A stretch of DNA of 64,000 bases from Lingula anatina (taxonomy: Eukaryota; Animalia; Brachiopoda), in NCBI GenBank assembly GCA_051362555.1, contig CM120643.1, positions 3,410,001 through 3,474,000 of the forward strand, given 5' to 3'. The position numbers and the translations under genes were made by a program. A model generated the notes under the pieces. The model ran no database searches. It worked only from the letters and a program-made list of their open reading frames with translations, and had not been told where the DNA came from. Below, in pieces: positions 2,272 through 38,196 of this stretch (position 1 is the stretch's first letter; the number at the start of each line of letters is the position of its first letter).

Positions 2272-5200
2272 TTAAATTAAACCAATAGCTTGGTCAGTTT
2301 CCATTGGTTCTTTTTCCCTCTGGGATGGCTTGTAAATGCAAGCCTGTATCTGATGTAGTGCAGGGTGGATTCTGGAAACAATGCTGCAGTGCACTGGCAC
2401 TTCACTTGTTGTGTCACTTGCTGAACCAACTAATATTCCAATGATAACCCTTTTTCCATTTTCCAATTCCACATACACTGCAGAACCAGAGTCTCCTTGT
2501 TGAGAAAATGTTGGTTTATCAAGAGTAGGGGTACTTAAAACTGTTATCATATTTGAAAGTGATTTAGTAACTGGAGGGACACCATCACTGAGGTTAGTAT
2601 AAAGGCAGTAATCATACGCGGAATTGACCACCCCAGTTGTCAGCCCCGTGGTTGTACCAAATTTGCGCACAAGTATAGGGTCCTGGAGACTACGTATATC
2701 TTCTATATCCACATCACTGAATGATGTTTGCTGTGATTGTATCGGAAACAAATTGGCTTCAGCATTTTTATTTAATTCCACAAGTGCAATGTCTACACCA
2801 TATGGACTATTTGAGCCAGACCCATTGTCAAGTTCAACATCACCTGCATAACATTTTCTAACAACCCCACATCTTTTCAAAGTGCAGCTGTTTTCAACAT
2901 AGACAGATCTGTTTTTTGCTGTTTCAGGACTGCTGCCATAAGGGCAAACTACATGGGAACATGTAACAAATGCCTGTGGCTTGGTTGATGCATGACCACC
3001 CCTGTGCTGATTAACAAATACCCCAAGGCTACCCTGGCTACTTTGTAAACCTACAGAACATCCAATATGTAACTGACTATGATCATTATCTCTGTTTCCT
3101 TCATTGTCAGCATTAAGAGAAAATGTCCCTTCCCTGACTTCAACTGGATACCCCTCAAGCTTTTCTGGAAAGTGTGCCATGTTTGTTATGTCACTGCAGT
3201 ATACTGCAATACAAGGCTTTTTCTCACCAGCGCCATCTGCTTGAATCCTTGAAATAGATATTCTTGAGATGTTGGGATATCTTTGTTGCAAGGAGACTGA
3301 ATGTTTCTGGATGGCTGCTCCCATTTCTTTCCTAATATCACGTGGAACAAGATCTCTTGTTATCTTTTCTAGGACTTCTTTGCTTATAAAGTCTGGAACT
3401 GTGAAAAGTGGTTTGGAAATGAAGCAAAATCAGATGTGAACTTTGTTTAGATGGCCAACAGTATATATTTTTGAGTACATGAATGAATAAGGTGACCAAA
3501 TGTGATCAAAAAGTTCTTTACAGAACTTATTTACTGCCAAATATTATTTACCTTTGCATTTAAGTAGCTTTTCTGCAGGTTTGGGCTTCTTACATGAAGC
3601 ACTTGTGTCTGCTGTATCTGACATGCTTTGTCCTGCTTGTCTAAAACAATAATAAAGATGATGTGGCAACAGACTTTGATAGTCTTTTAAGATGATAGAT
3701 GGCACAGCTAGTGGACATTTATTTATTTGGTCACCATACTGCCACAAAATAAGACCATTACATATTTGTGCTCATTGTGAACTTGGAAACGGTATTTACC
3801 AGAAATGTTTTAAAAAAAAGAATGTCAAGTTAGATTAGCTAAGGGTGCAGTCTACATGAAAACATTCTAAATCATAAAAGTTTTTTTATAAAATTGGCTG
3901 GACAACAACAGTGTTCTGTTTAATTTTGCTGCATAATGTATATGTCATAGAGAAGATTAGTTTTTTGTGGTCTTTCTTATCCAACCTTGAAGGCGATATT
4001 TTAATGCAGTTTGCTTTGATAAGATAAAATACAGACATTCTGTGTAAAATGCATGCATGATGATAATTATACTGATGTTAATCACATTGAGATGCACTTC
4101 TCTCTTGTTCAAAGGATGTAAAGAAAAGTATTTAAAATTATCCAATAGTTGACATTTTCCTGTTTGAGTATTTGAACAAACATGACAACCATGTCATGGT
4201 CTTGAAGCCTTAGTTGATGATTGATAAATTGTGGATACAGTTGCATTGTATGAAAATTGCTGTTTTTCAATGAAGATTTTATAAGCTATTTGCAAATAAT
4301 TGTTACCTTCTGTCCAATGAACTTGCCAATTCTGATCCTTCGCTGCTTGTGCTGCTGCTGCTGCTGCTTCCATCTGTAAAAAACAAAAGAAGCTATCCTG
4401 CTCAGGGAAATGTATATGATGATAACTATTAATGTGTATAATACTTTATTCTATTTCTAGGCTTACAATTTTTAAGTAAGGTTTTACATTTTTATGAGGA
4501 TTTCTGCTGGGTACTGGCTAGATCAGATGAGTGGTGAACTGTTTAGAAAGTTACCTGTTAGTCTAAATTATCTATACAATACCATGTAATAGCAGTGATA
4601 TTCTGGTGAAAAGAGAGCACCATTACAAATTGAAAAGTATGATCTGTTTGAAGCATAGTAGATGCAAAAGATATAATTATGTGCCATTTACCATCTATTC
4701 CTTTGTATTGTTTTCCCCTCTCCTCCAATCCCTTGAACCCCTTCATTGATGCAAAGTAGTGGTGTATGTCTTCTTTCCCCATCTGATCCTTCATTGGTGA
4801 TGGCACAACGTAATTTCCTTTCAGGCTGAGATGATCCAAATGTTTAAGATCCATGAGCTGATGTGGAAGATGAGTGATTCTGTTATGTGATATGTCCAGG
4901 TGCAGTAGTGATTGAATTTTGCATATGTCTTCAGGGACGTGTGTAAAATTATTATGTCGAAGTTCCAGATTTGTGAGTTTGGTCATTTTGATGACATCAG
5001 GATGTACACTTGAGATTTTGTTCCAATTCATTCCCAGTATCTTAAGCTCTGGAATGTTGCATACTTCAGCTGGAAAATCTGTAAACTGGTTTTCACTAAG
5101 TTCCAGATTTGTGAGTTTGGTCATTTTGATGACATCAGGATGTACACTTGAGATTTTGTTCCAATTCATTCCCAGTATCTTAAGCTCTGGAATGTTGCAT

Positions 5201-6456
5201 ACTTCAGCTGGAAAATCTGTAAACTGGTTTTCACTAAGTTCCAGATTTGTGAGTTTGGTCATTTTGATGACATCAGGATGTACACTTGAGATTTTGTTCC
5301 TATTCATTCCCAGTATCTTAAGCTCTGGAATGTTGCATACTTCAGCTGGAAAATCTGTGAACTCATTGCAACCAAGGTCAAGTTTTGTGAGTTTGGTCAT
5401 GTTTATGACATCAGGATGTACACTTGAGATTTTGTTCCAATTCATTTTCAGTGTTTCAAGCTCTGAAATGTGGCATACTTCAGCTGGAAAATCTGTGAAC
5501 TGGTTTTGATCAAGGTCCAGATTTGTGAGTTTGGTCATTTTGATGACATCAGGATGTACACTTGAGATTTTGTTCCTATTCATTCCCAGTATCTTAAGCT
5601 CTGGAATGTTGCATACTTCAGCTGGAAAATCTGTAAACTGGTTTTTATCAAGGTCCAGATTTGTGAGTTTGGTCATTTTGATGACATCAGGATGTACACT
5701 TGAGATTTTGTTCCTATTCATTCCCAGTATCTTAAGCTCTGGAATGTTGCATACTCCTGCTGGAAAATCTGTAAACTCATTGCAACCAAGGTCAAGTTTT
5801 GTGAGTTTGGTCATTTTGATGACATCAGGATGTACACTGGAGATTTTGTTCTGATACATTCTCAGTGTCTCAAGCTCTGAAATGTGGCATACTTCAGCTG
5901 GAAAATCTGTGAACTGGTTTCCACCAAGGTCCAGATTTCTGAGTTTGGTCATTTTTGTGACATCAGGATGTACACTGGAGATTTTGTTCTGATAAATATT
6001 CAGTGTCTCAAGCTCTGGAATGTGGCATACTTCAGCTGGAAAATCTATGAACTGGTTTGAACCGAGATCCAAGAACATAAGATTGGTCAACTTGTTGACA
6101 TCTGGGTGAAGACTGGTGAGTTTGTTGTTCCTTATATTCAGTTCTTTTAATTCTGGCAAAGAACAAATTTGAGTTGGAAACTCTTTGAAATCATTATGCC
6201 CAAGGTCAAACTTCCTCAGATGTTTTAGCTGCGAAATAGAGTCAGGGAGATGTGTTAGATGATTCCATGATAAATATAAGTACTGTAGATTACTGCAGCT
6301 ACTAATACTGGATGGTAGACTAGTCATCTGTCTGGACTGCAGCCACAGATCTGTCAATTGGTTCATTTCCTGCCATGATGGCTCAGTTTTTTTCCCCTTT
6401 TCCAATTCTTGGAGAATAAGAAGTACATCTTTTCTTTCCCTTTCTTTATAAGCCAT
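2272..6456 (-). CDS. LRR + Nal1-like trypsin-fold serine protease fusion, 4 coding exons (6456-4692, 4373-4307, 3640-3552, 3398-2272), ~1015 aa
   Basis: All three introns are GT-AG with matching phases (1,2,1); exon sum 3048 nt = 1016 codons with no internal stop. Exon 1: 23 LRRs of 23 aa (LxxLxLxxN) plus a PSP..G..IHHYF cap. Exon 4: PEKLEGYPVEVREG pre-protease motif and triad motifs VTCSHV (His), VDIALVEL (Asp), GDSGS (Ser). No signal peptide or TM segment seen. Confidence 0.85.
4961..6064. repeat. Coding tandem repeat: ~8 near-identical 138-bp units, each encoding two LRRs (46 aa)
   Basis: Unit starts at 4961, 5099, 5237, 5375, 5513, 5651, 5789, 5927 (period 138). Confidence 0.95.
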
Positions 6457-7434
6457 TGTTCAAATTTTTATCTTCAACAAGTCTACTCCAATGTATATTT
6501 TCATAAATTTGAATTAAGAAGACCTTGTTCCAGTGGCTACGCTGTAGTATTATGTGTCCTCTTTGAAGGTATCTTCTCTGTGTTGAGTCTTGTCCCACCA
6601 ATAAATTTTCTAAGCTCTTTGGTATAAAAACTGTGATTGAGTTTTTAGCAGGCAGAGCATATATAAACTATATGGATTATATTATCACTGCTAAGTTCTA
6701 ATGTCAATTCATCTTTGCAAAATAATGCAATAAATCCTGTTTTTGTTGCATGCATGAGACTTGCTTTGAATTTGAAAAGTTAGGGACAATATTTGCATGA
6801 TGTTCATGTGCAGTCAATTTTTGTTATCAGCTCTCAGTAACAGGAATTAATACATTGCATTTTATTAGCAATGCCGGGATTTATGATATTTTATATTATT
6901 ATGGTGGACAAAAATTGCAAAATTATTATTATACATAATGATCATACTTAGAAATATATGTTCTCTGGTATGTTTCTTAAAAACACCTGTTTCTACCAAA
7001 CTATGGATGGTGTTATGTCAATTTAGTATCAGATATTAATGGTTGACTGCATACTAGTATGTAAGACATTTATGTTCTTTATTCACAAGTGATTATATCG
7101 TTTCCCTAAAAAGAATAGTTGTATATCACCTGTCTAAATTTAACAGCACATACCCCTGTATATGGACATTCATGTGAATTAACTGTATTTTTTCCTTTTG
7201 ATCCTATACTTACTATTAGTAAGCTATCTTGATATTTACTTACTTAAATCATTTCAATATTCTTGTTCTACATGTAGTACTGAGTATAGAATTATTTCTG
7301 TAAATGTGCTGTTTATTTATGTGCTTATGAATCTATGTAATCGAGTGGGAAGAAGTTAAACATTTACAAATTGAAATATGTATGTGAAGGTGCATATCAA
7401 TAAAGAAATATGATTTTACGTGTATAAAGCTTCA

Positions 7435-10400
7435 TTTTTATGTACAGACACAGATGTGTCTGTACATATAGCCATCATCTGCGTCTGTCGTCGCCGTCGT
7501 CGCCGTCGCCATGCACTTTTACCGATAACACGATAAGTGGAAAACCATTTTGCCTTTTGATTTGAAACTTGCAGAACTGATGAATATTTATAATACGCAG
7601 GTCAAGTTCGAAAATCAGCATGATCGGGTCACTCTTAGGGAATTTATGCTGTTTTTTCACTTTTTTCAACATATATACAGCACCGATAACACGATAAGTG
7701 GAAAACCATTGTACCTTTTGACTTGAAACTTACAGAACTGATGAATATTCGTAATATGCAGGACAAGTTCGAAAATCAGCATGATTGGGCCATTTTTAGG
7801 GAATTTATGCTGTTTTTTCACTTTTTCAGCATATATGCAGCACCGATAACACAGTAAGTGGAAAACCATTTTACCTTTTGGCTTGAAACTTACAGAACTG
7901 ATGAAAATTCTTAATACGCAGGTCAAGTTCGAAAATCAGCATGATTGGGCCATTTTTAGGGCATTTATGCTGTTTTTTCACTTTTCAATATAAATGCAAC
8001 ACTGATAACACAATATAAGAAAAACGGATTGGCCAATTGGCATTATATTCACAGGAGTGGTCAATCTTACTAAAATGCAGGTTGAGTTCGAAAATCAGCA
8101 TAATCGGGCCATTATTTTAGAAGTTATACTGTTTTTTCACATTTCCTCAGATTCAATTATTAGGCATGTTAACAGTCTCATTATTGAACTAATTAGATGC
8201 GTAAAAGTGTTTGTTTGATATTTCCTGCATCTTTACAACATTGTTAGTTGATTATGTAAAAAAACATGGTAAACTTGTTATCATGTATTGTGTTATAAAG
8301 TGTCAAAAATGGAAACAAACTCATATCATTGCAGTTTGTCAGATTCAATCATCCACTATGTTCAGAATCTCAGAATGGAGGAAATTGGACATTTAACACT
8401 GTTCTATCGATACTTTTCCCATCTCATCAATTTTCTTAGTTGGTCATATAAAAATGGCAGTAAAATGTTTATTTTGTTTTATGTTAAAAAAGTGTTAAAA
8501 TGGAAATAAACCCATTTCAGGACAGTGCTGTCTTGTTTACATTTTGGCATTTTCAAGATGTGACTTTGAAGTTCCATGGGCCTGAAGACCTTTGCTTGTC
8601 ATGTTTTCTGAATGTCCATGTTACTAATATTTTATTAATAACATTTGATGGTTATTATGCTGTTAAACATTATGTAACGTTGCATCAAAATTTGAAGAAA
8701 CCCCTATTTAGGGCACTGCTCCTATGATGACCATTTAAGGGAAAACATGTCACTTGCTGTTCTCAAACTTACAAGAAAGAAACATGGGTCTAACATACAG
8801 CCTCAGTAGGCAATGCAGTCTGTTTGGTAAATTTTTCTGGCAATTTAACAGTTTTTTGTGAAAATTTAATTTTTCACTTATTGACATTTTCAAGGTGCGA
8901 CTTAGAACCTCCACAGGCTTGAAGACCCTTGCTAGTCACATTTTCTGAAAATCCATGACACGTATATTTTATCATTTAAAATTGATGGTCATTATGCTGT
9001 TAAGCATTATGTAATGTTGCATCAAAATAGAAGAAAACACAATATTTGGTGCTGCTGCCATGATGACCATTATGGGAAAACGGTGTTACTTATTACTGTC
9101 AAACTTTCAAAAAAGAAACACAGGACTAAAATGCAGCCCGAGTTGGAAAAGCAGTCTAATTGGCTTCTTTTTCTGGAAGTTATACACTTAGTGAAATATT
9201 CATTATCTTTTTGGCATATTCATTGTGGGACTCAGAGCTCCCATGGACATGAAGCCTAATGGTAATCAAATTTTCTACATGTCCATGCTATTTATAGTCA
9301 ATAATCAAAAATTGGTGATAATTATTCTATAATTTATTATGTAATGTTACATCAAAATTGACAATAATCTTTTTGCACTGCTACTGCAAACATTATGAAA
9401 AGAAAACTGTGTTACTTATTATTATATTTAACTTATAAGTACGATTTTTAGGATTGGCATGCAGTTCAAATTAGAAAGCCAGGTCAATTGGGTCATCATT
9501 TTTATTAAATTTATGCATTTTTTGTGAAATTTTCATTTTTCTCATTCTGGCACTTTCTAATTGAAAACTTGAACTCTGATGGGCCTGGAGCCTTATGCTT
9601 TTACTTTCATCAGCGTTACCTGTTGTGCATAATTAAAATTTTATGTTGACTGTGCAGTTAAACATAATGTATTATTGCATCAGAATTGGGCAGTCTCCGG
9701 TTTTTGTGCATTATTGTTTTCTGCTTTTCTTAAGGTGTGACTTATGGGCCTGAAGACCTTTGATAGACAAATTTGTGTGGTCAGTCTGTTAATTCCCCTT
9801 GGGTATTCACAAGGCTAATTTCAGTGCTATAAACTCATTTACCTAATTAAGTAGCCATTAATTGAAATTTCATAAAGCACACTTGTTGATATTTCCCTGT
9901 TAAGCTCTCTGCTAGATAACATAGTGTCCATAATAAGGAAGCAGTGAATAACAGCTTCATTAGAATTATATTTTTGTTGTTTCTATTTAATTTTTTCTCC
10001 AACACTGGCATTTTTAAGATGTGATTTTTAACTCCCATCCACCTGAGGCTGTGCACATTTTCAGTATTTCCACATAAGCAGCTGTATTGGTATTTATGTC
10101 TTTAAACACTATGTAATATTATTTTATGCACTGTCATCATTTTTCATATATAGGGACTTTCATCATGTGAATTTTAACTCTCATGGTCCTGACATTGTAA
10201 TCTTATTGAAAGGGTGGATTAAGACCATCTTCTGGGTCTCCTGAAAGACAGTCAGATTTTAAAGTTTATATTTACGGGTTTCTGTTGGAAGACTATCAAA
10301 ATGGAGGATGGATCAACAAAGATACTTTGGAATACTGTCAGAAAATATCTCTGAATCTGCTCCTGTTATTGACCATGTTACCTGTTGTGCATGATTAAAA

Positions 10401-10524
10401 ATCAGTGTTGACTGACTGTGCTATTATAAGCATTTATTATTGCATCAAAATTGACATAATGACCTATTTTGCATCTTTTTTTTCTGTTTTTTGTCTGTAC
10501 ATTTGACAGCTTTGCTGCCTTGTT
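7435..10524 (+). mobile_element. Helentron-associated non-autonomous element (HINE-like), copy 2, apparently full length (~3.1 kb)
   Basis: 5': T-run, palindrome TGTACAGACACA-GA-TGTGTCTGTACA (7441-7466), then a CGTCTGTCGTCGCCGTCG microsatellite. Central tandem repeats. 3': TGTCTGTACAT sub-TIR + GACAGCTTTGCTGCC hairpin + TTGTT. Confidence 0.75.
7521..8150. repeat. ~160-bp central tandem repeat (about 4 units) inside HINE copy 2
   Basis: ACCGATAACACGATAAGTGGAAAACC-type starts at 7521, 7682, 7842 and 8001. Confidence 0.9.
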
Positions 10525-18863: not shown

Positions 18864-19989
18864 CTACTGACTTCTTTTTCTTTTTCCCTTTCATTGTTTT
18901 ATTTGCATGAAACTCTCTTATTAAAATGGAAGGTACCCTATCTGCAGTAACCCAATCAGATTTTTAAAGGTATTTCCATTTAATTCTATACCACTTTGTA
19001 CCCCTGTAATTAACACATTTGATGATTTTTTCTGCTTCATCATAGCGTTCTTTACTTTCTTGGGGTTGTTTATCAACATCTTTTTGACTTCTATTTTCAA
19101 CTGAACTATCCTCATTGTCCTGAATTAATTCCTCAGAGACGTTTTGTTCATTTTTATCATTTCCCACACTCTTTTCTTTTAAAGATTCCCTAATAACAGG
19201 ATCTACGTAAGGTTTTAACCTGTTGGCATGCACAGGAGACCTTAGTTGTTTGTTACTCTCACATTCTCCTAGTAAATATGTAGCCCTTCCTACACATTTG
19301 GCTATGTAATATGGTCCACTATATTTTTCTGTAAGTTTGGGACTCATACCTTTCTTTACTTGGTGATTTTTTAACCAAACCACGTATGTTTCCTTGAAAA
19401 CTGGGAATTCTGCATTTTTATTATAATTTTTGCAATCTTTGTGTTGAGACTCTTTTTTCAATAACATGGCTGCTTGCCTCCCTGTTTCTAATTCAGAAAG
19501 TTTCTCCTTTACAAAGGTCTGTAAAGATGATGTTATATCTTTCTCTGGCTGAACTATCCTATCAAAAGGAGTCTCCATTTCCATTCCAAACAATATATGA
19601 AAAGGTGAATAACCAGTGGCAGTTGATGGTGTTGATCTGTATGCCATCATCACTGAAGGAAGTAAAGATGCCCAATCTTTTTGATTTTTCGCACAGATTG
19701 ATCTCAAAGCTTGGCTAATGAAACTGTTCATTCTCTCACACACACTGTTACTTTGTGGATGATATGCAGAAGTACACACTCTTTCTATCTGATAGATGTC
19801 ACACAAAGCTTTAACCAACTTTGACCTAAAATTTGCACCTCTATCTGAAACTAAAACCTTTGGTGCCCCATATCGAGTAAAGACTTGAGAATACAATATT
19901 TCTGCAATTTCAGAAGCCTCTTGAGTTTTCAATGGAGATGCCTCTGGCCAACGAGAAAATGACTCTACCACTAACAAAATATATTTATA
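18864..19989 (-). pseudogene. pol: Gypsy pol 3' part: integrase core, GPY/F module and chromodomain-like tail with one in-frame TAA
   Basis: YKYILLVVESFSRW..LVSDRGANF..YHPQSNSVCERMN (D,D35E core), KYSGPY..VHANRLKPY, then AEKIIKC..WYRIKWKYL*KSDWV..LIREF ending at TAG 18866-18864. Confidence 0.93.
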
Positions 19990-20796
19990 CAGCTACAGGA
20001 TTAATTTCGAAGACACTTTAATAGCCTTGGTTTATAATCCTTATGGTAGTTAAACGACTATTATCGGTGCGTTAATTATAGGGAATTAAACCTTAAGCCG
20101 TTGGGACCCAGCAGCGATAAATACTACTCTAACTCGGCCTAAATTTACTCAGCTCGCTTTTAGCCACCCACTGTGAGCAGGACACCATCATCAATAGAAA
20201 AATACTCCTGCACTTTCATTAAGATAAACAGGGTGATAAACCCGATGGGGTGAAAATACCGGCCTTTGTTAGTCAGAACAATAGCAGCCCTCGGATCGCG
20301 TCGCGTATTTCTCGAATTAAATGCTCTCAAATTGCCTTATACTGTTGAATAACCACGAAGAAAAAATAATAACTGAAAGTCCTTGAATAATCCCACCTTT
20401 TATAATACTTTTTTTTTTACATTTCAAATGACGAACATTTTGCTGTTGCGAAACACGCTAGTAAAAATCGCGCACTATCTTTCCCGACTTGGGTTTATTC
20501 AATTTGATGCACTATAAAATTAAGAAATTTAAAAGTTATAATTATATCATTGTCAAGGTATTTAATTTCAATTTAAAAAAAATAAATAGTGTATGTATCA
20601 CAGCTGCATAAATTTTCAACATTTTTCTAGTCGTACACCATGATACACCGCAGTAGGGTTATAAGATTGCAGTCATTTTAATTATTCGTATGACAAACAA
20701 ACTGCCAAATTATGAAAGGGGGCACCTTCCGGACCTCCATACATACGGCACCTGGCAAAGCTGATAGACAAAAAGGCAATTTTCAAATTTTCAGCG

Positions 20797-22640: not shown

Positions 22641-25600
22641 ATGGACGAGGTAACTAACTATTTTGTTCATTATGTACACATTTAATGTAATAATATAATT
22701 CCATGGTTAAGTAAGGCATTGCATTTATGTATCTCAACATTTAAGTCATTATTAATAAGTGCCTCTCAGTAACTTACTGTACATTGAGAAGTCTAGTGGT
22801 AATTAATTGCTATTTGGTTACTTTAATAGATGCTGGAATATGGAAAAAGGTGTCGGTCAACTCCAACTGGTTCTACACCTGTGCAAAAGGAAAAACATGG
22901 TAATTCTTTATTAAATCTTTAAGACCATCAATTTGCTTTAACTGAAATGTTTAGTTATAGCTAAAACACACATTGAAAGTCAGGTAAATGGCACTGATTG
23001 GTACATTGAAGATATGTTTAGGTGCAAAGATCTACAGTAGTCATGTATTGATTGAGTTTTCATTATAGTTAGAGCCACGTCTGCCAGGTCTCTCTTCCCA
23101 AATTACAATGATCCATGGCAGAGTAATGAGGTTAGAAAGTTAGTGGAGTTCATTGGAATAGCAGACTCCACATTAACCTCATGCAATGAACACCAGTGGC
23201 CTTCTTCTAAAAATCGCTCATTTTGGCAAGAATGTGCTGAATTTATCAGCAAGGAGGCTGGCACTGTACAAAGATCTGGTAAATTGAAAAGATTTTAGAA
23301 ACTTTCAATGTTTCTTTTTATTGTTGTGAAGTGTTACCTGGTACTTACTTGTTTGTAGTTGTTAAGGATTATAAAATGTAACTAACATTTCATTTCGATG
23401 TATTTCTGAATCCAATGAATTAATAATAATTTTTGTTAATTTTGTTATTTTTTACTAGCAGATTATGGTGGAAGTTTCCAGTCAGGTTTCCTTGCTGCAA
23501 GTTAAACTACAACTGTTCGGGTGGAAGGGATTATTTTTAGGGAAAAGATTTTGTTGATTTTTACTTTTCTGACATACACCTTTGTTTAAGTTTGCTTCAT
23601 TTTGTTCTAGATGGTTATTTAAATTTTGGCTATAAGTGATGAATAGCACTCTGTGAAACATTCTTGAAGATGATTTTCAATTCAAAATGTGCTTGTTCAA
23701 TTTGCTGTGATTGGGGGTGGGGTATTAAACTGTCATGTATTGCACTTGACATGCCCCGTCAATACCCTGATACTCTCAGCATACTAAAAACAAAAGCACA
23801 ATGTATGTATGTATATATATATAGTAAATTTTAATTTAAAAAAAAAAGACCTTAAAGATTTTAAAAAGATTTTAAATAAGTTACGTTCTTTACCGCTGCA
23901 TGCTGTGGTAACTTATACAGCAACTTGTTTATCACTTTTTGTTTTGTTCAAATTTCAATAATAATCACCTTTTTCTTTTTTATTTTTTTTTAGGAAATGC
24001 TTGCAGGACTTATGCCTTGAAGCATCTAGCAAAAAAATTTGACTCTGTAGAAAAGGCTGAAGATCATTTTGGAGTTTATGAACTTGAAGAGGAAAGTGGA
24101 AAGAAAAGTCCAATTGTTGAACATGAAGATGATATTGAATTGATAAAAAGAAAGACCAAAGACATGGACACTGGCCAAATTTTTCATTTGATTGATTTTT
24201 TATGCCAGGAGTTGATAATTGGTGAAAAAGTGTTACCGGCCAATTTTTTTGAATCTCTTCTTTCTTTGGTTCAAACAGAAAATAGAACTCTAATACTTAA
24301 TTTTATAGATGCTCTTAAAAAGGATAGACTGACGCCAGGCAAAATGCCACATGGAATGATTTCATACATTTTTAGTTTTTTATCCAGTGAGGAGATGGGT
24401 CAGGTGATGAGATGCCCGCCTGACTATGAAGCATACATGACAACCATGTATGCCCACTTTGGGAACAAGTGGATATCTCTACATAATGGGCCAATGTGGA
24501 CTGGTACATGTAAGTGCAGACCTTTTATTTATTATTTTATTTAAAGTACTAATTAATGTATGGTTCATTATAAATAAAAAAGTAAGACAGATTTAAACTT
24601 AATTGTTTCTTATATAATTCTGATTTATGAAGCATACTTGTATCTATAGGTTCTGAGAGTACACGAGAAAACTCTGTAGGGAGGGGTAGAGTAGATCACG
24701 ATGAAATGGAAACAGACCACAGTTATAGTGCTGGAACAGAATCAGCTGCCCATGAAGTTGAACTTGCTGGACGGGACCTTCTCAGAGAGGCCATTGATAT
24801 GACTGTAGGTCCATTAGAATGGTGAGTAAATTTAATGGACTCGTTTCTCCCAAATCTATCAGTACACACTTGATGTAAATTTAATGGTTTCTATTTATAT
24901 CATAGTACATATAAGCGTAGACTTTTAGTTTATATAGCATGGCAATAATGACATTTTGTACAATATGAGAGATAAAAAAGACTTTTCTTTTTTACACAGT
25001 TCAACATCAAGATCAACTCTATGGGCAGCTGATTCTGTTTCAGACAGAATGGAAATAGATGAGGGAGATCTCAGCATTGAACACATTGAAAGGCAGCATG
25101 GTTTAGTGAAAGTCAATAAGCACAAACCTATGCAATTGAAGATCATAGAGGTAGGATCAATAATTATTCGAAATTACATTCCATTTAGTTATTGCTATTA
25201 TCATAGATAAGTTTTGTTTACTAATTTTCATTCCATCACATTTACATCTTCAGTACATTTCTGTACACCTCTTTAAAAAAACTTTGATTTACAGGCAAAG
25301 TGCAATATTCCTGGCATCAGTGGCAGGTCCATAAGAAATAAAATAAAGATGTCTGGACATTTTGGATCTAACTGTACGGGCACTTCTGTCCAGATGGGAA
25401 TGATCCATAAAGCCAAGCAATCTAACCCCAGTGGAAAGTGGATTATCAAGTATGATCTAACTGATGTCACTCCTGCCCTAAGGGAGAGTGTCAAACACGT
25501 GTGGGCCGGGGATGTAGACATCGGGGACGGGGAGGTGCAATTTTTACACATGTGCTACAGGGACAAAATAAAGGCTGTCGGAGAAATAAACAAAGGTAAC

Positions 25601-28600
25601 AGAAGGGATGCTGCAGTAGTCCTCAGTGATTTACAGAATCAAAGGAAGTTAGTCCTAGAAGATAGGCCATTTCTGGAAAAAAAATACAAGGAAGCTAAAG
25701 TCAAATACAACTTGAAAATAGAAAAAAAATCAACTCCACCAGAAGAGAAAATGTTAGCCATTGCATGGGACTTACAGGAATGTGAATATTTACTAGAACT
25801 GGGCCTAAAAATATCCAATTCCATTGAAAATGTGTGTACAGCTGTAAGACGGGGTTCTGAAAGATGTATCCCTTCCGATATAACTCAGGTCAAAACAGAC
25901 CTTATGCTTTATTGGAAGGGATCCTTCAAAAAGAAAAGAACTGCTGCTACACATTTACTTGTATTCATGATTTCGGATGAGCAAAGAAACACAAGACCTT
26001 ATGCTTTGCCTGTCAGGTGCCTGGCAGTAAGCACCCTGAAAGACAAGAAAGCAAAACTGCTTACTGAAGAACTAATACAGGCAATGACACAGGAGGGCAT
26101 GCATGTTGTTGGTATGCACTGTTTATAGAATAGAAATTGCAAATGAATAAGTATTAGGCCCATTTAAATGAAAAAGAAAGCATCTGATTTTTTAAAATTT
26201 TTGAAAGATAACTGTTTGTCAGTGGGATATGTTTATATAAAAGTGTTAATTAACAAATTTGTCTCATTTATATTATTATTTTTGTTTTCATTTAAACAGA
26301 TTTATATTTTGCTTTTACATTTCAGGGTCAGTTTCAGACGGTGAATTTAATTCTCTGAGAACAAAGGGAGGAAGACCAATATCAGTCATACAACTTATAA
26401 TGGATTCAAAGGAGGAGGCAAGGAAGATAAATGCAAATCAAATTGAGGTATTCCTAAAAGTACAAAAAGGACCCGGTAAGGATGACTTCATTTGTAATGG
26501 TTGTAAAAAAGATCACAATGTTTGTTTTTAATTTAAAACACACAAAGCATGAGTAATTGTGTTTAACAGACAACTCAATTTTACGCATGCCCCATGATAT
26601 GTTCTGATGAACTTAATTTTTCTTTTACTGTAGATGGAAAGCTACAATCAGAACGAAGGCATGAGGCCATACCACTTGATGACCTTGAAACATTAGCCTC
26701 ACTTCAGGACGAAGGTGTTCTATTTGAAGAAGCTATTTTTGTTTTGAGGAGGAAACATTTTCCTCACATGCATAACCCGTACCCTTGGGTTGCAGGTAAA
26801 CCAATATATCATTTCTGTGAAAATTGAGTACTAGTACATTTTTTAGTAATGTAAGTTGATGCCATTTTGAGAGACAAAAAGAGGTATTATGATGAACTTC
26901 ATATGTTTATATCTATTATTTCAAGGTAAATCTGAAACAAAATCAGACTGCCTCAAGTCTTTAATGGCAACATGGATTTTCCGAAACAAAATCGAAAAGT
27001 TTGCAAGGGAAGGGATAGATTTCAAAAGTCATTTAATGGCTTTTGAATATGATGAAGAAACTGGTAATTATTTATCACACTAATAAAAACAGCTTTAAAT
27101 CTTATTCAACGAGTATCATGCAATCATTATGATTACCACAAAGTAAAGTTTCATTGCAGAGTCAAGATAATTTCATCCTTTAGCATGTAATAATAGCATT
27201 CATAATTTTTGCATAGGTGAACTGCTGCATGAAAGGGAAGATCATGGTCATGTACTAAAAAGAATAACAGCATGTCTCAGAGATGGACAAATTCAGGACT
27301 TTGACTGCACAAAGCTTGTGGAGGCACTGCATGACAAAGACACCAACCTAACATACTCCGCACTTGTAGGGAAAAACAAGCAGAGTGTGCCTGATTGTGA
27401 AAGGTTATTTTAATTTGACCATTCCCACAGATATTTGGACCAATCTATCTCCTTAGGGATTCTCACTGAATTGCTATCAACTTAACCGTCATAAATTTAT
27501 GTCACGCTGTTAATTATCTTTACCCCCTTGCTGGTTTGATAGCAATTTAGTGAGACTCCCCAGGGAGTTAGACCAATCCGGATGGATTGATATAGGCATG
27601 GGAATCCAGGCCTAATATCTAACCTGTAAAATGTTTATAAACTATTTTAAATTGTTTATAAACTATTTTAATTTCCTGAATAATCTACATGTTTTTCCTA
27701 ATACTTACCCCTTTTCATTTTAAGAATATTTTCTAAACCTATGATCACATTCATGGAGGAGAAAGGGTACACTAATGAAGCCAACTTTCTCAAACTCATA
27801 TTCAACTGGCACAGAGCTGCTGATGGCAGAGGACTCACAGAGCAACAAAGAAGGAAATACAACCAGAACTTTTTGAACTATATACTTGATTCCTGGATTC
27901 CATGGCATGCATGGCCAGGTTATAATTATAAGGACATTGATGTCAACTGGTATGTATAGACTACATCATATACACTGAGTGTGACATAATACATTATGCA
28001 TGTACTTCATGTGGGATTTTTTATGGTGGCTTTTAATAAATTATTTTTGATATGTCATACATGGGCAAATATTTAAATTTGTCATCTTATTTGTAGCCCA
28101 ATCAAAGGCATATGTGGTTTAACAAGAGAACTAGTGGTGGCCCTTGTCTGCAATCTAGAGTCGAAGTTGCAGCGGTCTACAGATGTCTCACGCCCTCCAG
28201 AACACCCAAGGGCTTTTACAACCGATGATGTGGAAGCGTTTTTTGCAATGTTGAGGGGGCTGTTGGGAAGAACCTTTGACACAAAACAGTTCTTTGAGCA
28301 ATATCCGTAAGTATATAAGCCTTAAATCATTTTTTGGCATAATGAATGTAAACTTTGATAAAAAACAGCATATTAAATTATTAAAAAAATAACATATAAT
28401 ATATATATCAAATGAGTACTTAAAAATATATATAGATAATTTCCGCATTACTTTCTGATAACATTATTAATGTCTATTCCTTTGCATATTCAGAAAAATC
28501 ATTCAGGAGTTCTTCAAAAAGCTAGACAATGAAGAAAAGTTCCATTATTATACTGGACACTGTGTTTATGGGATAAGTGAACAACTCCCCTCATTTAATG

Positions 28601-29085: not shown

Positions 29086-29922
29086 TTATTGAACATATTT
29101 ACTTTTTCTTATCACTTGGATAGGCCAAGCTCCTTTTTTAGTAACAAATAACTTAACATAAAAACCTGGCACTTTCCACAACCTAAAGGAAATGTTGTCA
29201 ACTCTGCAACCAGTCACTAAATCTAAATTAACGTACCGCCATAATTCCTGTGGTAAATGGCCAATTGTAATCCACTCTCCTTCGTGCAAAATCTGGACTG
29301 CCTTGCTTCCAATAGAATAATCATTATCCAAAATGAGTCTTGTTGATACAGTTTCAATAAGCTTTTTGTTCATTTGGTTATGTATGTTTTTCAATAAGGT
29401 TTGTCTATACTGAAAATGGGCAACCCCCAATACTTTAAAAGGTAGACAGTGCTCAACATTTTCATCAGCAACATCTTCATCAGCATGTCCTTCATCAGCA
29501 ATGTCTTCATCAACAACCTCTTCATCAGCAACATCTTCATCAGCATCTCCTTCATCAGCAACATCTTCATCTTCCCCCTCCTCTTCTTCACTACTTAGGT
29601 TTTTGTTGTCATCCTCGATGAAAGGTGCACTATCAGACTCCCAGTCCCAAACAATTAGGCAGGGACCAAATAACTTAATGTTAGTTTTGAAAAAGTAACG
29701 GACAAAAATGGTAAAAGGTTCAACATTTAATTGCAGACTTAAAATATCACTAGATGAAAATAAAGCTGTCTGTCTTGATCCATTACATAGTACAGTGGTT
29801 CTAAGCAATTCAACAGAAATGCCTGGGAAACAAGGAATAGTGTGTGTTATTTTGTCTGGAAAAACTTCTAAAACAGTCATTTCCTCATCACCTCCTTCTT
29901 CTGCTTTACAAATGCATAACAT
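29086..29922 (-). CDS. Transposon accessory protein: unknown N-terminal domain, acidic repeat linker, C-terminal HIRAN-like domain (278 aa; 5' end may be spliced)
   Basis: C-terminal pattern LPFKVLGV..TRLILDNDY..KAVQI..IGHLPQEL resembles HIRAN (FxVxG..lxxxxxNxyDxxAixV..iGyvP). Tandem DEDVADE repeats. Splice acceptor TTTTCAG ends at 29925, just upstream of the ATG. Confidence 0.7.
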   Translation of the reverse strand: MLCICKAEEGGDEEMTVLEVFPDKITHTIPCFPGISVELLRTTVLCNGSRQTALFSSSDILSLQLNVEPFTIFVRYFFKTNIKLFGPCLIVWDWESDSAPFIEDDNKNLSSEEEEGEDEDVADEGDADEDVADEEVVDEDIADEGHADEDVADENVEHCLPFKVLGVAHFQYRQTLLKNIHNQMNKKLIETVSTRLILDNDYSIGSKAVQILHEGEWITIGHLPQELWRYVNLDLVTGCRVDNISFRLWKVPGFYVKLFVTKKGAWPIQVIRKSKYVQ

Positions 29923-32900
29923 GTCTGAAAATAATTAATACATAGAAAATATGTGACACTGATCTATTGCTGAGCTGCAGGTGTACCGGTATATAGAATC
30001 TGTCTTGAGATGAAATATACATTTGGTGTAGATATGGGGTATATTCCTTTCTTTTTATGACATATTTATTAATTTAAATTTTAAATTTAATTCGTTTTGA
30101 ATTATTATGGAGCAAACAATTACACCTACCTTTCCCAGTTTGTTAAAATAAGCAGGACTTAGAGCAAGATGAGTATGTATACAGTGGGCAATAAAATGAC
30201 GTCGACCACACGACCAAACGATAAATAACGACGTAACGTTACGATTCACCCGTGCACATACTAGAATTTCCAAAAACATTTCTTTTTTACAGTGACATAG
30301 TTCATTTCCGAGTTTTTTCTATCGAGTCTGACCCCTGAAAAGTCAATGAAAGCATCAATATAACATTTTATTAATTCTTCAAGCAACAAATAAATGATAT
30401 AAAATTTACGTTATTACCATGTAAGTGTCGCATTATTGAACGACGTTACAGGAAGACGTCGCCGGGAGCTCACTTTCGATGTTTACTCTTCGACGGCAAA
30501 ACGTCAAATGAGACATGTGCGTGCGCATCTTTTGACGTATCACGTGATACCCTTCCAACCACCACTGGTAACGAGCTAATTGCACTCTTAACCTACCCCT
30601 CGCTGGTTAATTACTAGTTTAGTAAACAGTACAAAACGCAGTGCAAAACGAAGATCACTTTCCTAAAACAGAAAAAAACTCTGTATCAGTTCACATATGC
30701 TATCTCATCCATCTTCACTACACAAATATGAGCGGTAGCTGTCGTGTGTACTGGGTAAGGGGGTAGCAGTGAAACATTTGTTATAAATATAGATACAAAT
30801 AATGTTCGCATCCTTCACCCCCTGGTAAATAATTAAAAAAGTGGGTTGATATGTATTGTAGGGTGGCGTTCCGTAATCGTTTTTATTATCTTATCATTTT
30901 CTTTTGTGTGAACGTTCTTTGTCATGAAGTGCGTTGAGTCAGATGGTTTTATCCCCCGAATAGCTGAACGATTCACTGTCCATCTCATGCGTGTGACAGT
31001 TGCTTTTTATATATGTTTTAATTTTGTTCGCAATGTATGTATATTATTTGGTATACGATGCGGTGTACAGAATGTGGTCACAGACGTAAATATTTGCATC
31101 GTGATAGACTGGGCTTCGAGATCTAGGTGGAAAAGGCAAATTAGGTTAATAACGAAGTTTATGGCCACAGTAATTAGTGGCCGATTTCTCACCTCATTCT
31201 CTTCAACCAGAGGTAGTTACAGATAACCATCGCCTGTCTTTATTTCAGGGACATTAGTGCTGGCTCATGACAGCATTGATAGTTTCCTACTCTTTTGTCA
31301 CTTCCTCTTCCATTGTCTGTTGAGGTATGTCCGATGAATACCGATAAGGACAGAGACAACAGCACGCATATAACAATACTGCTGGAAGGCTCAAAATTAT
31401 CACAGTTTATGTAATTTTATTTCAGAGATCAACTTAAAGATTGAAAGCACTCACTACCAACACTCGAAATTTGTACAAATACTTTTTTCGAAATGAACGT
31501 TCTCAAACGGAATGTTGAGATGTTGGTATGTGCTTTGTAGGCTGTTGATTGAGATCGGGTTCAGCCCCGTCGTAAGAAAAAATATGTTATAGTGATCCAA
31601 AACTATGCGATATTATACTCATTTTTGCTTTATTATTATTTAAGATATATTATAATATTATCTGTAGGTGAAACAAGAATGTAGTGATGAAAAAAAAGTA
31701 GGAGGGAAAACCAGAGGACTAGCAGACTCCTTATATAAAATAATGACAGGGAGAAAACCTGATGTGAGAGTGGCCTTTGTCTTCTGTCTTTCTTTCAAAT
31801 TTTACTGCACTGCAGATACCAATGTTTCTAACTTTTTTGTTGAAGAATGCTGATACTGGTACGTGTTACTTTGGAACGCTTGACCCACGTAGCATCCTAG
31901 GGGTATATAAGTTTTCACTGTGACAGGAAAAAAAAAAACAGAAGAAAAAATTGCTGAAGTGTTTCCTTTTATTTATACTGATGAATCTGTTATCTGTTTG
32001 CCAAAAAGCATTTTTGGTTTGACCACATTCTCTATTGTGTCTGTCTGAAGAGAAAAAAGGATACAGGGTATATATTAGAAGCGTTTTACTTGGGAGGGGG
32101 GTCTACATATTCAATATACAATATGTATGCGTACATGAAGAACAATTGCATTATCATAAAGAAGGTTTAATTAAGTTTTGTTTACATTAATACAAACGCT
32201 GGATAATTTTTACAGAAAGTTAATTGTCCTTAAAACGTCCTATATTTTATCAAATTTTCAGCAAGCAGTAATCTGTAAAATGAAGCAAATAAAAACAAAC
32301 AATTTAAACACTGAAAATTCTTATGAAAATTAGGCTATTTAAGGGCCCTTTTATTACTTAATATGAAAAACGGACCTATTTAAAACAACTTTTACCATCA
32401 AGCAAATGTTGATAACAAAATAATACTGAACGTTGCATGAAGTGAATATGTTAGTTCGAATGTTAGTTTGATCTTTTTTCCACAATTTAAAAGTTTAACT
32501 GTTTTAAAGGTTTAACTTGTTACTTAAAAGTCTAATTTAGTTTAATAGTCTAACCGAACAAATGTTGATTCCATGCAATTAATGGTTATAAAATTTAAGT
32601 TGACTTTTAGATGAAACATTAAAACAAAAATAGTGAGCAACATGGCAACATAAAAATAACCGCAAACAAACCAATAAATTAACACTGTGGTCGCATAAGG
32701 CATGTACATGTGCCTACATCGTCTGAATTACCTTTGTAACCGTACTTGTAACCTGGAATTCAATTGGATATAAAAGTGTAAAGTAAACAAAAAGGTTACT
32801 GAGGTGCATAAGCACTTTTAACAGTTCTATCTAAAAGCTATAACGACTTTGTCGCAATGTAGTTAGCGCGTTCGATATACTGTTGCTTGCACATGTAAAA

Positions 32901-33564
32901 AATGGCGCCAATGAAATATCAGCCGCGTGCTCAAAGTCGACTCGACGCGGAATGTAGTTATTGTTTTGAAAATAAAGTTTCTGTGAATGGTGGCCTGAAA
33001 AGATGTTTACAGTGTAATATGAAGTTTTAAAGAACATATTAAACCACGGCAGCATTAGTATATTCATATCAAGCAGACTCTGTGCATATACGCTAGTCAT
33101 GCCCTGCAATGTGAGGGTCACGCTGTCGAGATCGCCCGTTCAACTGTTCAGGTAAAATTTAAGTAATGCTCGGCAAATCCATAGTGAAATAAGTCAATCA
33201 AGTTGTCTAGCGAGATATATGATGCAAGCACGTTCCACAAGGTTATAATTAACTGAAGCGATCTTAATAGCTGATTCAACGAGCCACACGTCGTTTACCG
33301 GATTACATAACAAGCAAAGATAAAGTGGTGTTGGCGTCCCGCTGCGGCTTCAACAGCTTATTTTGACAAGGCTCGCGCTACGTGATGGCTTGAGAAAAAC
33401 ATCATTGTTAAACCTTAGTGTCGATGCGTTAATTACTTATGGTCGCATTGTCTTCTTCCCACGGCGACCATTCATAAAAAGGGGGCGTAGTTAGGTATTA
33501 GACGAATTTTTTAATCACCCAACGCGTTAGTGGTGCGTTGTCCTCTGACATAATCCGTTACCTG

Positions 33565-36395
33565 TATCTCTCATTTGTCTCTGGTAGTGGCCCTAAAATG
33601 TCCATATGCCATGTATGGAAAACATCATTGATAGGTAATGGTTGCAATGGAGCTGGATGATGGTGATATTTTCTTTTTGACCTTTGACAAACTTCACAGG
33701 ATTTTACGTAATGTTTGACATCCTTGTAAACAGTGGGCCAAAAATACTTCAGTCGAATCTTTTCTAAAGTTCTTTGAAACCCTTGATGACAACCACCTAC
33801 TTTAGAATCATGATAAAATTTCAACAATTCACTTCTCATTCCCTTAGGAATTACTATTTGTTCAACAACTCTACAATCACCTACTCTTTTCTTTTGTTTA
33901 CTTTGGTAATGATGACACAATATTCCACACTCATCTATGAAATAATTATCTTTCAGATATTGCTCACTTTTATTCAATGGAAATTCTGTAGAAGCTAGAG
34001 CCTTGAAAATCACATCCAAATCCACTGAATTCTTTTGTTCCTTAACCAGATCTTCACTTTCAACAGTTATTGAGTACACAGATATATCTTCCTCAATTTT
34101 TGTTTCTTGACTGTGTCCTTCACTGACCTCATTTTCCTCATCATATTTCTGTCTAGACAAACAATCTGTTGGATTCAACCGACCTTTCTTGTAAACAATG
34201 TCAAAGTCTAAATCCTGCAATTGCAGCGACCATCTCTCTAATTTCTGATTTGTAGACCTTTTTGATTTGAGCCATTCTAATGGTTTGTGGTCTGTCACTA
34301 CAGTAAAGTGATTTGTTTGCAAAAATTGTCTAAATTCTTTTACACCCTCAACCAGTGCAAGACATTCCTTTTCTGACGTGCAGTAATTCTTTTCTGAACT
34401 TCTTAAAACTCTTCCACCATATGCAATTGCATGCTCTCTATTGTCATCACCAATCTGACTCAACATGTAACCAATCGCAAAATCAGATGCATCAGTAGTC
34501 AACTTGAAAGGCTTATTCATATTTGGATAAGCTAAAATTGGAGCTTTCACTAACTGGTCCTTTAACTCATTAAAGGCTTTATTTGTTTCCTCAGTCCACT
34601 CAAATTTTTCTGAATCTCTTGTTAATCTACATAGAGGAAATGCTATTTTATCATAATCTCTAACAAATCTTCTGTAATAATTGGCCATTCCAAGAAAACT
34701 TTTCATTTCTTTTTGATTTTTTGGTTTTTGAATTTTCTTCACTGCCTCAACCTTTGACATATCAACTTCTATACCATTTTTGGAAATAATATGTCCCAAA
34801 AATTTAATTCTTTCTGTGACAAATTTACATTTGTTTGGTTTTAAAGTCATGTTTGCCTCTCTCAATCTCTGAAATATCAACTCAAGATGTTCTAGGTGTT
34901 CCTCAAAAGTCTTACTAAAAACTAGTATGTCATCTATGTATGTCAAAGCACATTTCCAATTCAAATCTTTGAGAATTCTTGCCATAACAGACTGATATGT
35001 CGCACCGGCATTTCGAAGGCCGAAAGCTAAACGCTTAAATTGAAAATGCCCATGATGAGTAACAAAAGCTGTCTTAGGTTGAGATTCTGGATCTAACGGA
35101 ATTTGCCAATAACCACTCGCACAGTCCAATGAAGAGAAATACCTACTTTCACTTTCTCCTACAGTGTCAAAAATATCAGACAATCTTGGTAATGGAAAAT
35201 GAATAGGCTGAGTAACACTGTTAAGTCTACGATAGTCTATAGCAAATCTTAATGTACCATCTTTCTTTTTTACTAAGACTACAGGACTTGCCCATGGACT
35301 ACTAGATTCTTCTATGATTCCATACTTCAACATTTCATCCGTTTGTCTTTCTATCTCAGCTCTGTTAGCTGGTGTCTGCCTATAATGAGCTTGTCTTTGA
35401 GGTAGTGCATTTCCAGTTTCGATAACATGACCTGAAATTTTAACCTCTCCTAATTCTTCCAAAGACAATGCAAAAACATCTCTATTTTGTGCTAAGAACT
35501 TTGTCAAAACAATTCTCTGAGTCTCCGTCACATCAGATGATGAAAGGTCAATTCCCATGTTCTTCACTACTTCATTAGCATAAACATTCTGAGATTGTTT
35601 ATCCTTAACTACACTAGTATCATCTCCTGAGATATTCATATCAATACTTGCTTTGTTCTCTAAACTATAAATTTTCTCACGTTCTACTGCAGTCGCTTTG
35701 GCTAAAACCTTATTTTTGGGAATAACAATGGATCTCTCTGTTGGATTGTAAACTCTACATACTGTTGAACCCTTCTTTGGTTGTAAAACTGACTTTGCCA
35801 ACATAAATTTGGTATTAGTAGGTTCTACTAACAAACAGCTATTTTTGATTCTATTGATTCTTGCCACCCTGACTGGAATAATAGTTTCGGATCTAGGTTC
35901 CAGAACTACCTTGCTAGATGTTCTTACTAAACCAATATAATTAGGTTTTTGCAAAGTATGTTTATTTCTGTTTCCTTGCAAATACAGAGAATTATCATTC
36001 AAGTCAATGATGGCTCCATTTGTTTTCAAAAAATCTAAACCCAAAATGATTCCTCTAGGTAAATTTTCAAAAACATGAAAAATATGAGAAAATGTTTGAC
36101 ACCCAATCTTCAGTTTCAAAAGGGTTTGACCTAAGGTGTTATATTTTTGACCTCCTACACCAGATATACTTTTGATTTTTGAACTTTGCATAGAACTTTT
36201 GAATTCTGAATCTATTCTTTCAAATGTCTTCTTGGATATACAGGATATACTTGCTCCTGTATCAACTAAGGATAAAACTGAATTTTTGCCAATAAAAACC
36301 TGAATTAAATTGTTGTTTTGGGGATCTTCAGAAAAAATTTCACTCATGTCCACTTTTTGATCAGAGATTGAAGATTTCACATTGTGCCCGTACCC
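33565..36395 (-). pseudogene. pol: Gypsy pol 5' part: protease, reverse transcriptase, RNase H, integrase Zn-finger; truncated by the insertion
   Basis: LVDTGAS; WASPVVLVKKKDG..DYRRLN; FGLRNA; YIDDILV; TDASDFAIG..EKECLA..TDHKPL; HDSK..GCHQG..CEVC; WHMDILGP. Confidence 0.96.
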
Positions 36396-37766: not shown

Positions 37767-37812
37767 TGTGAAAGTCTGGGATCTTCCTTTTAAACAATAT
37801 TATTAAAAGTTT

Positions 37813-38117: not shown

Positions 38118-38196
38118 GTTACCCCTAAGATTATGCATTTAAATTGTCTTAACACTTGGACAATGTACACTTTTTTTTTTCTTATAGGCAGACAAT

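Follow-up and report, generated by a model that had tools for sequence, protein, structure and literature searches.

A leucine-rich repeat array joined to a predicted NAL1-type serine protease in the brachiopod Lingula anatina: a candidate intracellular sensor-protease

The closest described system to the gene analyzed here is rice NARROW LEAF 1 (NAL1; PDB 7Y77, 8PN2, 8PMG, and 8HAU; Pfam NAL1_N PF25608 and Nal1_C PF25819; PMC12012508), an intracellular developmental protease of plants in which a pre-domain precedes a two-barrel serine protease with a His-Asp-Ser triad. In a 64,000-nt stretch of the Lingula anatina genome (GenBank assembly GCA_051362555.1, contig CM120643.1, positions 3,410,001 to 3,474,000; hereafter, the window), a minus-strand gene at 2272..6456 encodes a protein of 1,015 amino acids (aa) that shares the triad and, as modeled, the domain order and fold of NAL1, and that is likewise predicted to be intracellular. 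Unlike NAL1, the window protein carries 23 leucine-rich repeats (LRRs) and a Ser-rich linker in place of the N-terminal region, has lost the equivalent of Lys139, and has a shorter loop, and its gene is an animal gene that is multi-copy and variable. We propose, at about an even chance, that this gene encodes a cytosolic, one-chain innate-immune sensor-protease composed of a diversified LRR array and a predicted NAL1-type serine protease. What is new here is the switch-less LRR fusion, the splice evidence, the lost ATP-site lysine, and the diversification at both ends of the protein.

The same architecture is present in L. anatina XP_013395621.1, which RefSeq names "leucine-rich repeat and IQ domain-containing protein 4" and which, judged by its sequence, is an allele or recent paralog of the window gene; compared with the window gene, the model has fewer LRRs, no C-cap, and an earlier stop. 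The protease is missing from its name, and no protease Pfam match at E 0.01 appears among the matches listed for it. Repeat sensors and proteases also share one intracellular chain in systems described in PMC13475620, namely, a Runella caspase-like protease with LRRs and an NTPase, bacterial trypsin-like proteins, and Podospora HET-Q2. In contrast to the window protein, the gasdermin-activating proteases in those portions belong to other protease families (CHAT or subtilisin in the tested cases) and adjoin their gasdermin, whereas none was seen in the scanned open reading frames (ORFs) of the window. Yeast Ssy5 (peptidase S64, PF08192) is, like the window protein, an intracellular chymotrypsin-clan enzyme, with a weak profile similarity that falls below the cut-off (E 0.11), but the relevant passages of PMC5567314 describe it as a sensing-pathway protease without LRRs that is switched on by a separate membrane sensor; they also mention a Crassostrea (oyster) sequence in the Pfam S64 family and doubt its membership. 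Animal NLR and ROCO proteins share LRR sensing with the window protein, which lacks NACHT, NB-ARC, and ROC-COR domains. FAM111A is an animal intracellular trypsin-fold protease with an antiviral role, and it is structurally distant from the window protease (Z 10.2, rank 38). The usual view of intracellular immune receptors in animals is that they signal via caspases, TIR domains, or kinases. We found no description of NAL1-type proteases in animals, or of their fusion to LRRs, in the open-licence literature, outside of which most subscription papers lie; an earlier sequence-only reading (the first-pass annotation) likewise named no characterized animal example of the architecture. The trypsin passages seen in PMC8195603 concern bacterial systems, and 12 of its 13 supplementary files contain neither the four Lingula accessions nor the word Nal1.

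The first-pass annotation had proposed that an LRR ORF and a protease ORF are joined in frame by two small exons, and analysis of splice sites and frame bears this out: the gene has four exons with a GT donor and an AG acceptor at every intron, phases of 1, 2, and 1, and a single open frame of 1,015 aa. Exon 1 (4692..6456; this and all following features of the gene are on the minus strand) is covered by RNA reads in runs X6, X8, and X9 and encodes, from the start codon (6456-6454), an N-cap, 23 SHOC2/LRRD1-type cytoplasmic LRRs (aa 34-562), and a C-cap. The count of 23 comprises 21 repeats found by a strict pattern and two variants, at aa 34 and 80, recognized by eye; among solved structures, LRRD1 and SHOC2 are nearest. 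Eight tandem LRR doublets of 46 aa (138 nt) occupy 4978..6081 (aa 126-493), with most of the variation held at their concave-face positions. Intron 1 (4374..4691) is followed by exon 2 (4307..4373; 67 nt), which encodes a poly-Ser linker of variable length between copies, and intron 2 (3641..4306) by exon 3 (3552..3640; 89 nt), which encodes the remainder of this Ser-rich linker of about 52 aa. After intron 3 (3399..3551), exon 4 (2272..3398) encodes the pre-domain, the catalytic domain, a short C-tail, and the stop codon; of four candidate acceptors for this exon, two keep the frame open, and the one at 3398 was chosen by RNA reads. A transcribed 5' leader extends over approximately 6457..6668, given a binned X6 depth of 4.85 at 6518-6668 and 0 beyond. 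By hydropathy only, with no signal-peptide predictor, the N-terminus has no hydrophobic 19-residue window (highest mean about 0) and no window of the whole protein exceeds 1.2, in agreement with the proposed cytosolic LRR array without a signal peptide. Likewise, neither exon 1 nor exon 4 has a Pfam match to a ROC-COR or NACHT switch, and the linker is short. The 23 LRRs, linker, pre-domain, and intact triad were thus all recovered in the translated gene, of which there is no second copy elsewhere within the window.

Next, we asked how the protease unit is related to known enzymes. Against Pfam, exon 4 matched Trypsin_2 (E 0.002), Nal1_C (E 0.035; 13.7 bits versus a gathering cut-off of 26.1), and Peptidase_S64 (E 0.11; 11.4 bits versus 23.6), all below cut-off, and it is because scores fall under these cut-offs that the family has been overlooked by annotation. 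A search of 1.84 billion representatives yielded 81 relatives. When a 59-row alignment was used as the query for a profile search of the PDB, NAL1 was the best match (E 1.2e-16; next, 9e-4), while a single sequence gave chance matches only. The AlphaFold2 model built from the same 59-row alignment reached a predicted local distance difference test (pLDDT) score of 88 and a predicted template modeling (pTM) score of 0.90; in Foldseek, all rows listed down to rank 34 were NAL1 (best E 8.8e-17). The VIA structure comparison also placed NAL1 first (Z 24.6, root mean square deviation 4.2, 295 aligned residues, 19% identity), with model residues 20-354 on NAL1 92-443, followed by alpha-lytic-type proteases (Z 18.1). 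NAL1 residues before 92 do not align with the model, and the linker lies outside it; in NAL1, the N-terminal strand at aa 48-53 stacks trimers into the hexamer. The top Atlas matches (0.96-0.97) were mostly bacterial clusters, several of which carry minority Nal1_C, S64, or trypsin labels. Within the unit, a pre-domain homologous to the ATP-binding domain of NAL1 lies at 3130..3339 (aa about 661-730; profile match and fold model), and the catalytic domain at 2332..3072 (aa 750-996; fold model and alignment). The family alignment places the catalytic codons at 2953..2955 (His789), 2791..2793 (Asp843), and 2488..2490 (Ser944, in a GDSG motif); in 85 aligned rows, the His column is invariant (85/85), the Asp column holds Asp in 76 rows and Glu in 9, and the Ser column holds Ser in 73, with 9 rows ending early and 3 having other letters. 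On the basis of the model, the protease unit is a two-barrel chymotrypsin fold with a His-Asp-Ser triad, closest to NAL1, as the first reading of a trypsin-like protease of Nal1 type had anticipated. We considered the pre-domain as TRADD-N and dropped this candidate, as it is the NAL1 domain that matches; a second tandem pre-domain in animal relatives was unsupported by the profile (5 weak double matches among 89).

The pre-domain aligns with the ATP-binding domain of NAL1 (limits aa 89-172), with the profile match running through the domain, and we identify it as this domain, here without its key lysine. PMC12012508 reports that NAL1 binds ATP via R120, R122, K123, K139, and D166, that the K139A variant aggregates and has impaired activity, and that proteolysis requires the hexamer. 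These ATP-binding residues are not conserved in the window protein, which has Ile711 at the K139 position and Glu727 at the D166 position; by eye, only the R120 position is still basic. Across the family, the K139 column holds Lys in 70 of the 81 rows that have this segment and the D166 column holds Asp in 68 of 85 (rows that include the window protein, two isoform duplicates, and bacterial proteins), and both the window protein and XP_013395621.1 lack the lysine, have a shorter loop, and carry Glu for Asp, whereas XP_023930657.1 is an example of a relative that keeps the lysine. In the window protein, this loop has 23 residues rather than 27, i.e., four fewer than the family mode. Judging by these alignments, nucleotide binding appears to have been lost. 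The PxxLEGxPVEVxE pre-domain singled out by the first-pass annotation is thus present, while its identity as the NAL1 ATP-binding domain and the loss of the lysine had gone unnoticed. The loss would suit a reading, which we consider very unlikely, that the protease has little activity or acts as bait, either for protease inhibitors of pathogens or for the product of an incompatible allele, while a separate partner signals. Such a decoy or self/non-self role would also fit the high variability of the catalytic surface between copies and the impairment of NAL1 by K139A, but the triad, the GDSG motif, and the fold are intact in both copies, and the window shows no sign of a partner gene.

To follow transcription, eight of nine RNA runs (all but X3) were mapped, with 6 to 30% of each read, four at 90% likeness and four at 82%, and a splice joint was listed only with at least three reads. 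At 90% likeness, there was almost no coverage (near zero in three of the four runs) and no splice joint at the gene. At 82% likeness, the exons were covered at low depth in three of the four runs, intron 1 was spliced out in seven reads (four in X6 and three in X8, with a slightly shorter poly-Ser tract there), and intron 3 was spliced out in six reads (five in X6 and one in X8). In X6, most first mates mapped to the plus strand, which is what the majority of stranded libraries would give for an RNA from the minus strand. Many reads were only 82-95% alike to the window, indicating that related copies are expressed too. The RNA check therefore succeeded for joints 1 and 3, in reads of close copies, and fell short for joint 2 (exons 2 and 3), which is unlisted and rests on the RefSeq model XP_013395621.1, itself a prediction, in which the sequence of exons 2, 3, and 4 is likewise linked in this frame. 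With joint 2 unlisted and X6 reads lying over parts of intron 2, it could be argued that there is no single protein and that exons 1-2 (LRRs) and exons 3-4 (protease) mostly end up in separate or intron-retaining transcripts. We regard this as barely credible, since the splice sites of the two small exons are strong and their inclusion leaves the frame open, XP_013395621.1 joins exons 2 and 3, and no promoter or independent start is evident at exon 3. Moreover, exons 2 and 3 together span only 156 nt, so that most 150-nt reads over joint 2 would be expected to cross another joint as well and may go unlisted. Poly-Ser tract length in exon 2 (4307-4373) varies among the window, X6, X8, and XP_013395621.1.

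Analysis of the relatives revealed a family spread over brachiopods and bivalves that the first-pass annotation, correct in describing one spliced gene, had not noticed. The nearest protein is XP_013395621.1 (83% identity over exon 4, with the same LRR-linker-protease order). Among 29 distinct proteins, organism labels identified 5 from Lingula, 11 from bivalves (1 via a cluster member), and 1 from bacteria, with 12 having no label. Partner domains clearly above the Pfam cut-off were found in 9 of the 81 relatives, and all are of repeat, switch, death-fold, or DUF4559 types: LRR (1), ankyrin (2), ROC-COR (1), CARD-NACHT (1), DED (1), DUF4559 (2), and DUF4559-NACHT (1). Longer cluster members and one more match add ankyrin with a weak NACHT-like match, Neuralized with a weak CARD, a weak nSTAND3, and Sel1-NACHT. 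The last of these is the Sel1-NACHT-protease arrangement of P0085; P0078 (Mercenaria XP_053378860.1) is an apparent NLR (DUF4559-NACHT, with LRRs seen by eye) that ends in the protease. In additional protein searches, an insensitive word index gave 1 match among 2,847 longer candidates and 1 among 1,594 of similar length, and an alignment search of proteins of 1,386-3,955 aa gave 1 match among 5,182, so that further animal LRR fusions of 650-1,400 aa may exist.

A tree of the protease unit was built from 69 of the 87 rows, omitting 16 that were truncated and 2 isoforms, and repeated with bacterial loci. The window protein and all five Lingula relatives, together with two other proteins, formed one clade (support 0.96; 0.92 in the repeat tree), although the five Lingula relatives differ in N-terminus, which is LRR, ankyrin, ROC-COR, CARD-NACHT, or without a recognized domain. 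Different N-termini in one lineage clade are the usual pattern of lineage-specific immune domain shuffling, and the sequences indicate expansion and domain shuffling within the Lingula lineage. The animal clade comprises 60 tips with a support of only 0.50 and no bacterial locus inside, and we make no claim of gene transfer.

Variation is concentrated at both ends of the protein. Specifically, the eight 46-aa LRR doublets are near-identical in DNA, with pN of 0.33 and pS of 0.22 at the concave face (10 positions per doublet), compared to pN of 0.03 and pS of 0.14 at the other 36 positions. Distinct variant codons were amino-acid-changing versus silent at a ratio of 21:1 at the concave face and 8:9 elsewhere (Fisher p 0.0009). 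Compared with XP_013395621.1, identity was 167/170 over aa 1-170, 43/46 (93%) in the linker, and 107/109 in the pre-domain, but only 191/247 (77%) in the catalytic domain, where the 56 differences far exceed the 2/109 of the pre-domain and 3/170 of the N-terminus (Fisher p 4e-8). Rather than being spread evenly, these differences cluster (p 0.002 to 0.006), fall where the family is less conserved, and affect the residue pair directly preceding GDSG; selection acting on the cleft would explain them, as would paralog recombination. The protease domain with an intact triad stands as first described, while its far higher variation than the rest of the protein had not been noticed.

That both the LRR face and the catalytic domain vary also bears on the main rival to our proposal, a direct-acting restriction factor. 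Here, a ready protease would be directed by its LRR targeting arm to a pathogen protein, which it would destroy without any host signal. A cleft that keeps changing would be better matched to a foreign substrate that itself changes than to a constant host protein, and FAM111A offers an animal antiviral precedent with a trypsin fold. Nevertheless, we judge it unlikely, as the switch and adaptor domains on relatives (NACHT, ROC-COR, CARD, and DED) imply regulated activation in the family, and the difference from XP_013395621.1 could come from paralog recombination.

Bacterial NAL1-type genes were examined by scanning genome contigs with four bacterial-type relatives, and the best 80 of 568 loci were analyzed. 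The commonest recurring neighbor, after a cluster of opposite-strand ORFs that overlap the protease gene, was a RimK-like ATP-grasp gene, found near the protease gene in 14 of the 80 loci (L002, L003, L005, L006, L010, L013, L017, L019, L021, L025, L026, L028, L037, and L041). It lies downstream of the protease gene in several phyla, often with a second, unannotated conserved gene between, and a peptide-modification cassette is a possible interpretation. Small stand-alone copies of the pre-domain also adjoin the bacterial protease gene (L029:1174-1473, L035:4957-5256, L036:4975-5256, L049:3923-4258, and L072:4984-5262). No gasdermin name occurred among the 65 representatives of genes adjoining bacterial NAL1-type genes, nor was there a gasdermin match in seven scanned long ORFs of the window, a scan that would miss short exons. 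The suggested link to gasdermin-activating proteases therefore gained no support at the level of the family and is an analogy of architecture. Activation by cleavage in the linker, also suggested initially, found no parallel in NAL1, which is reported to need oligomerization; the word autocleavage is absent from PMC12012508.

The RimK-like neighbors are one of several observations that would fit a non-immune regulatory protease, which would trim host regulators in development or nutrient signaling and use its LRRs as an ordinary substrate adaptor. PMC12012508 and PMC5567314 report, respectively, that NAL1 degrades FZP and OsTPR2 and that Ssy5 processes a transcription factor, and the LRRs are closest to those of LRRD1 and SHOC2 among solved structures. 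We find such a role distinctly improbable: a housekeeping regulator would not be expected to expand within one lineage while its NLR, ROCO, and death-fold partners are shuffled, to diversify its LRR face, or to differ widely between copies.

In our preferred interpretation of an immune sensor-protease, the protease would be off at rest, either monomeric or held by the LRR arm. The concave LRR face would bind a ligand, probably repetitive, that signifies non-self or damage, and binding would cluster the chains or free the protease, ordering the His loop as oligomerization does in rice NAL1. With the ATP site that stabilizes the NAL1 assembly apparently lost, control would probably have passed to the LRR. 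The active protease may then cut a downstream host protein that signals or kills, in the role that caspases fill downstream of other animal sensors. The immune-type context suggested by the first-pass annotation gains from the presence of the same protease on ankyrin, ROC-COR, CARD-NACHT, DED, and NACHT modules and from the diversified LRR binding face.

Several observations weigh against this interpretation. Rice NAL1, the only characterized member, is developmental, and 72 of the 81 relatives have no clearly recognized partner domain. PADLOC matched 6 of 65 neighbor representatives (58 loci), mostly partially or with generic-looking hits that reveal no clear defense context; the window protease itself drew no PADLOC hit, and of ten relatives only one did, weakly. 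An enzyme lacking the K139 equivalent might be weakly active or inactive, and the LRR selection statistics are indicative only, the repeat copies being related rather than independent. At the RNA level, joint 2 is unlisted with some X6 depth inside intron 2, and expression is low in the sampled RNA (112, 159, 0, and 171 reads in the four runs at 82% likeness). Furthermore, the X6 catalytic-domain variants listed are mostly like XP_013395621.1, including its earlier stop, and not like the window, so the transcription seen is that of a close copy and not of the window's exact catalytic variant.

A broader proposal, which we hold tentatively and at a shade below an even chance, is that brachiopods and bivalves possess an undescribed protease arm of intracellular immunity. 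The NAL1-type cassette would act as a swappable, caspase-like effector behind NLR, ROCO, ankyrin, and death-fold modules, and the window gene would be its simplest, switch-less one-chain receptor, in which the LRR face and the catalytic cleft diversify and the ATP site has been given up for control by the LRR. If true, a NAL1-type serine-protease effector on many sensors of brachiopods and farmed bivalves would represent an added output class in invertebrate immunity. The LRR fusion would be the easiest member to test, given that a single chain holds sensor and enzyme, the catalytic serine has been identified, and specificity could be compared between two natural catalytic variants.

In the surroundings of the gene, two direct repeat copies (2-2045 and about 8500-10523) of at least 2 kb, about 89-96% alike in most blocks, form its flanks, and in the reads the repeat end at 2045 adjoins many different sequences, as a dispersed element would; repeats in this arrangement could promote duplication or loss of the gene. 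In run X7, five reads run from the repeat end at 2044 straight into 6443, with no splice signals at the junction, reflecting either a copy without almost the whole coding region or a separate repeat insertion near the start of a diverged copy. The consensus of loose-end reads at the 5' leader has no match elsewhere in the window. Farther away, an ORF at 38188-39503 (+) encodes a CARD at its N-terminus (E 6e-9) and, beyond it, hydrophobic stretches that may span a membrane, with a second hydrophobic ORF overlapping in another frame; its sequence makes a CARD-membrane immune gene possible. Ty3/gypsy-type retrotransposon ORFs (gag; protease, reverse transcriptase, and RNase H) and a separate integrase fragment occur at 33558-37799 (−) and 18964-19992 (−). 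Finally, three ORFs of 210-283 aa at 23912-26128 (+) and 29086-29934 (−), with no Pfam match at E 0.01, are possibly transposon- or virus-derived.

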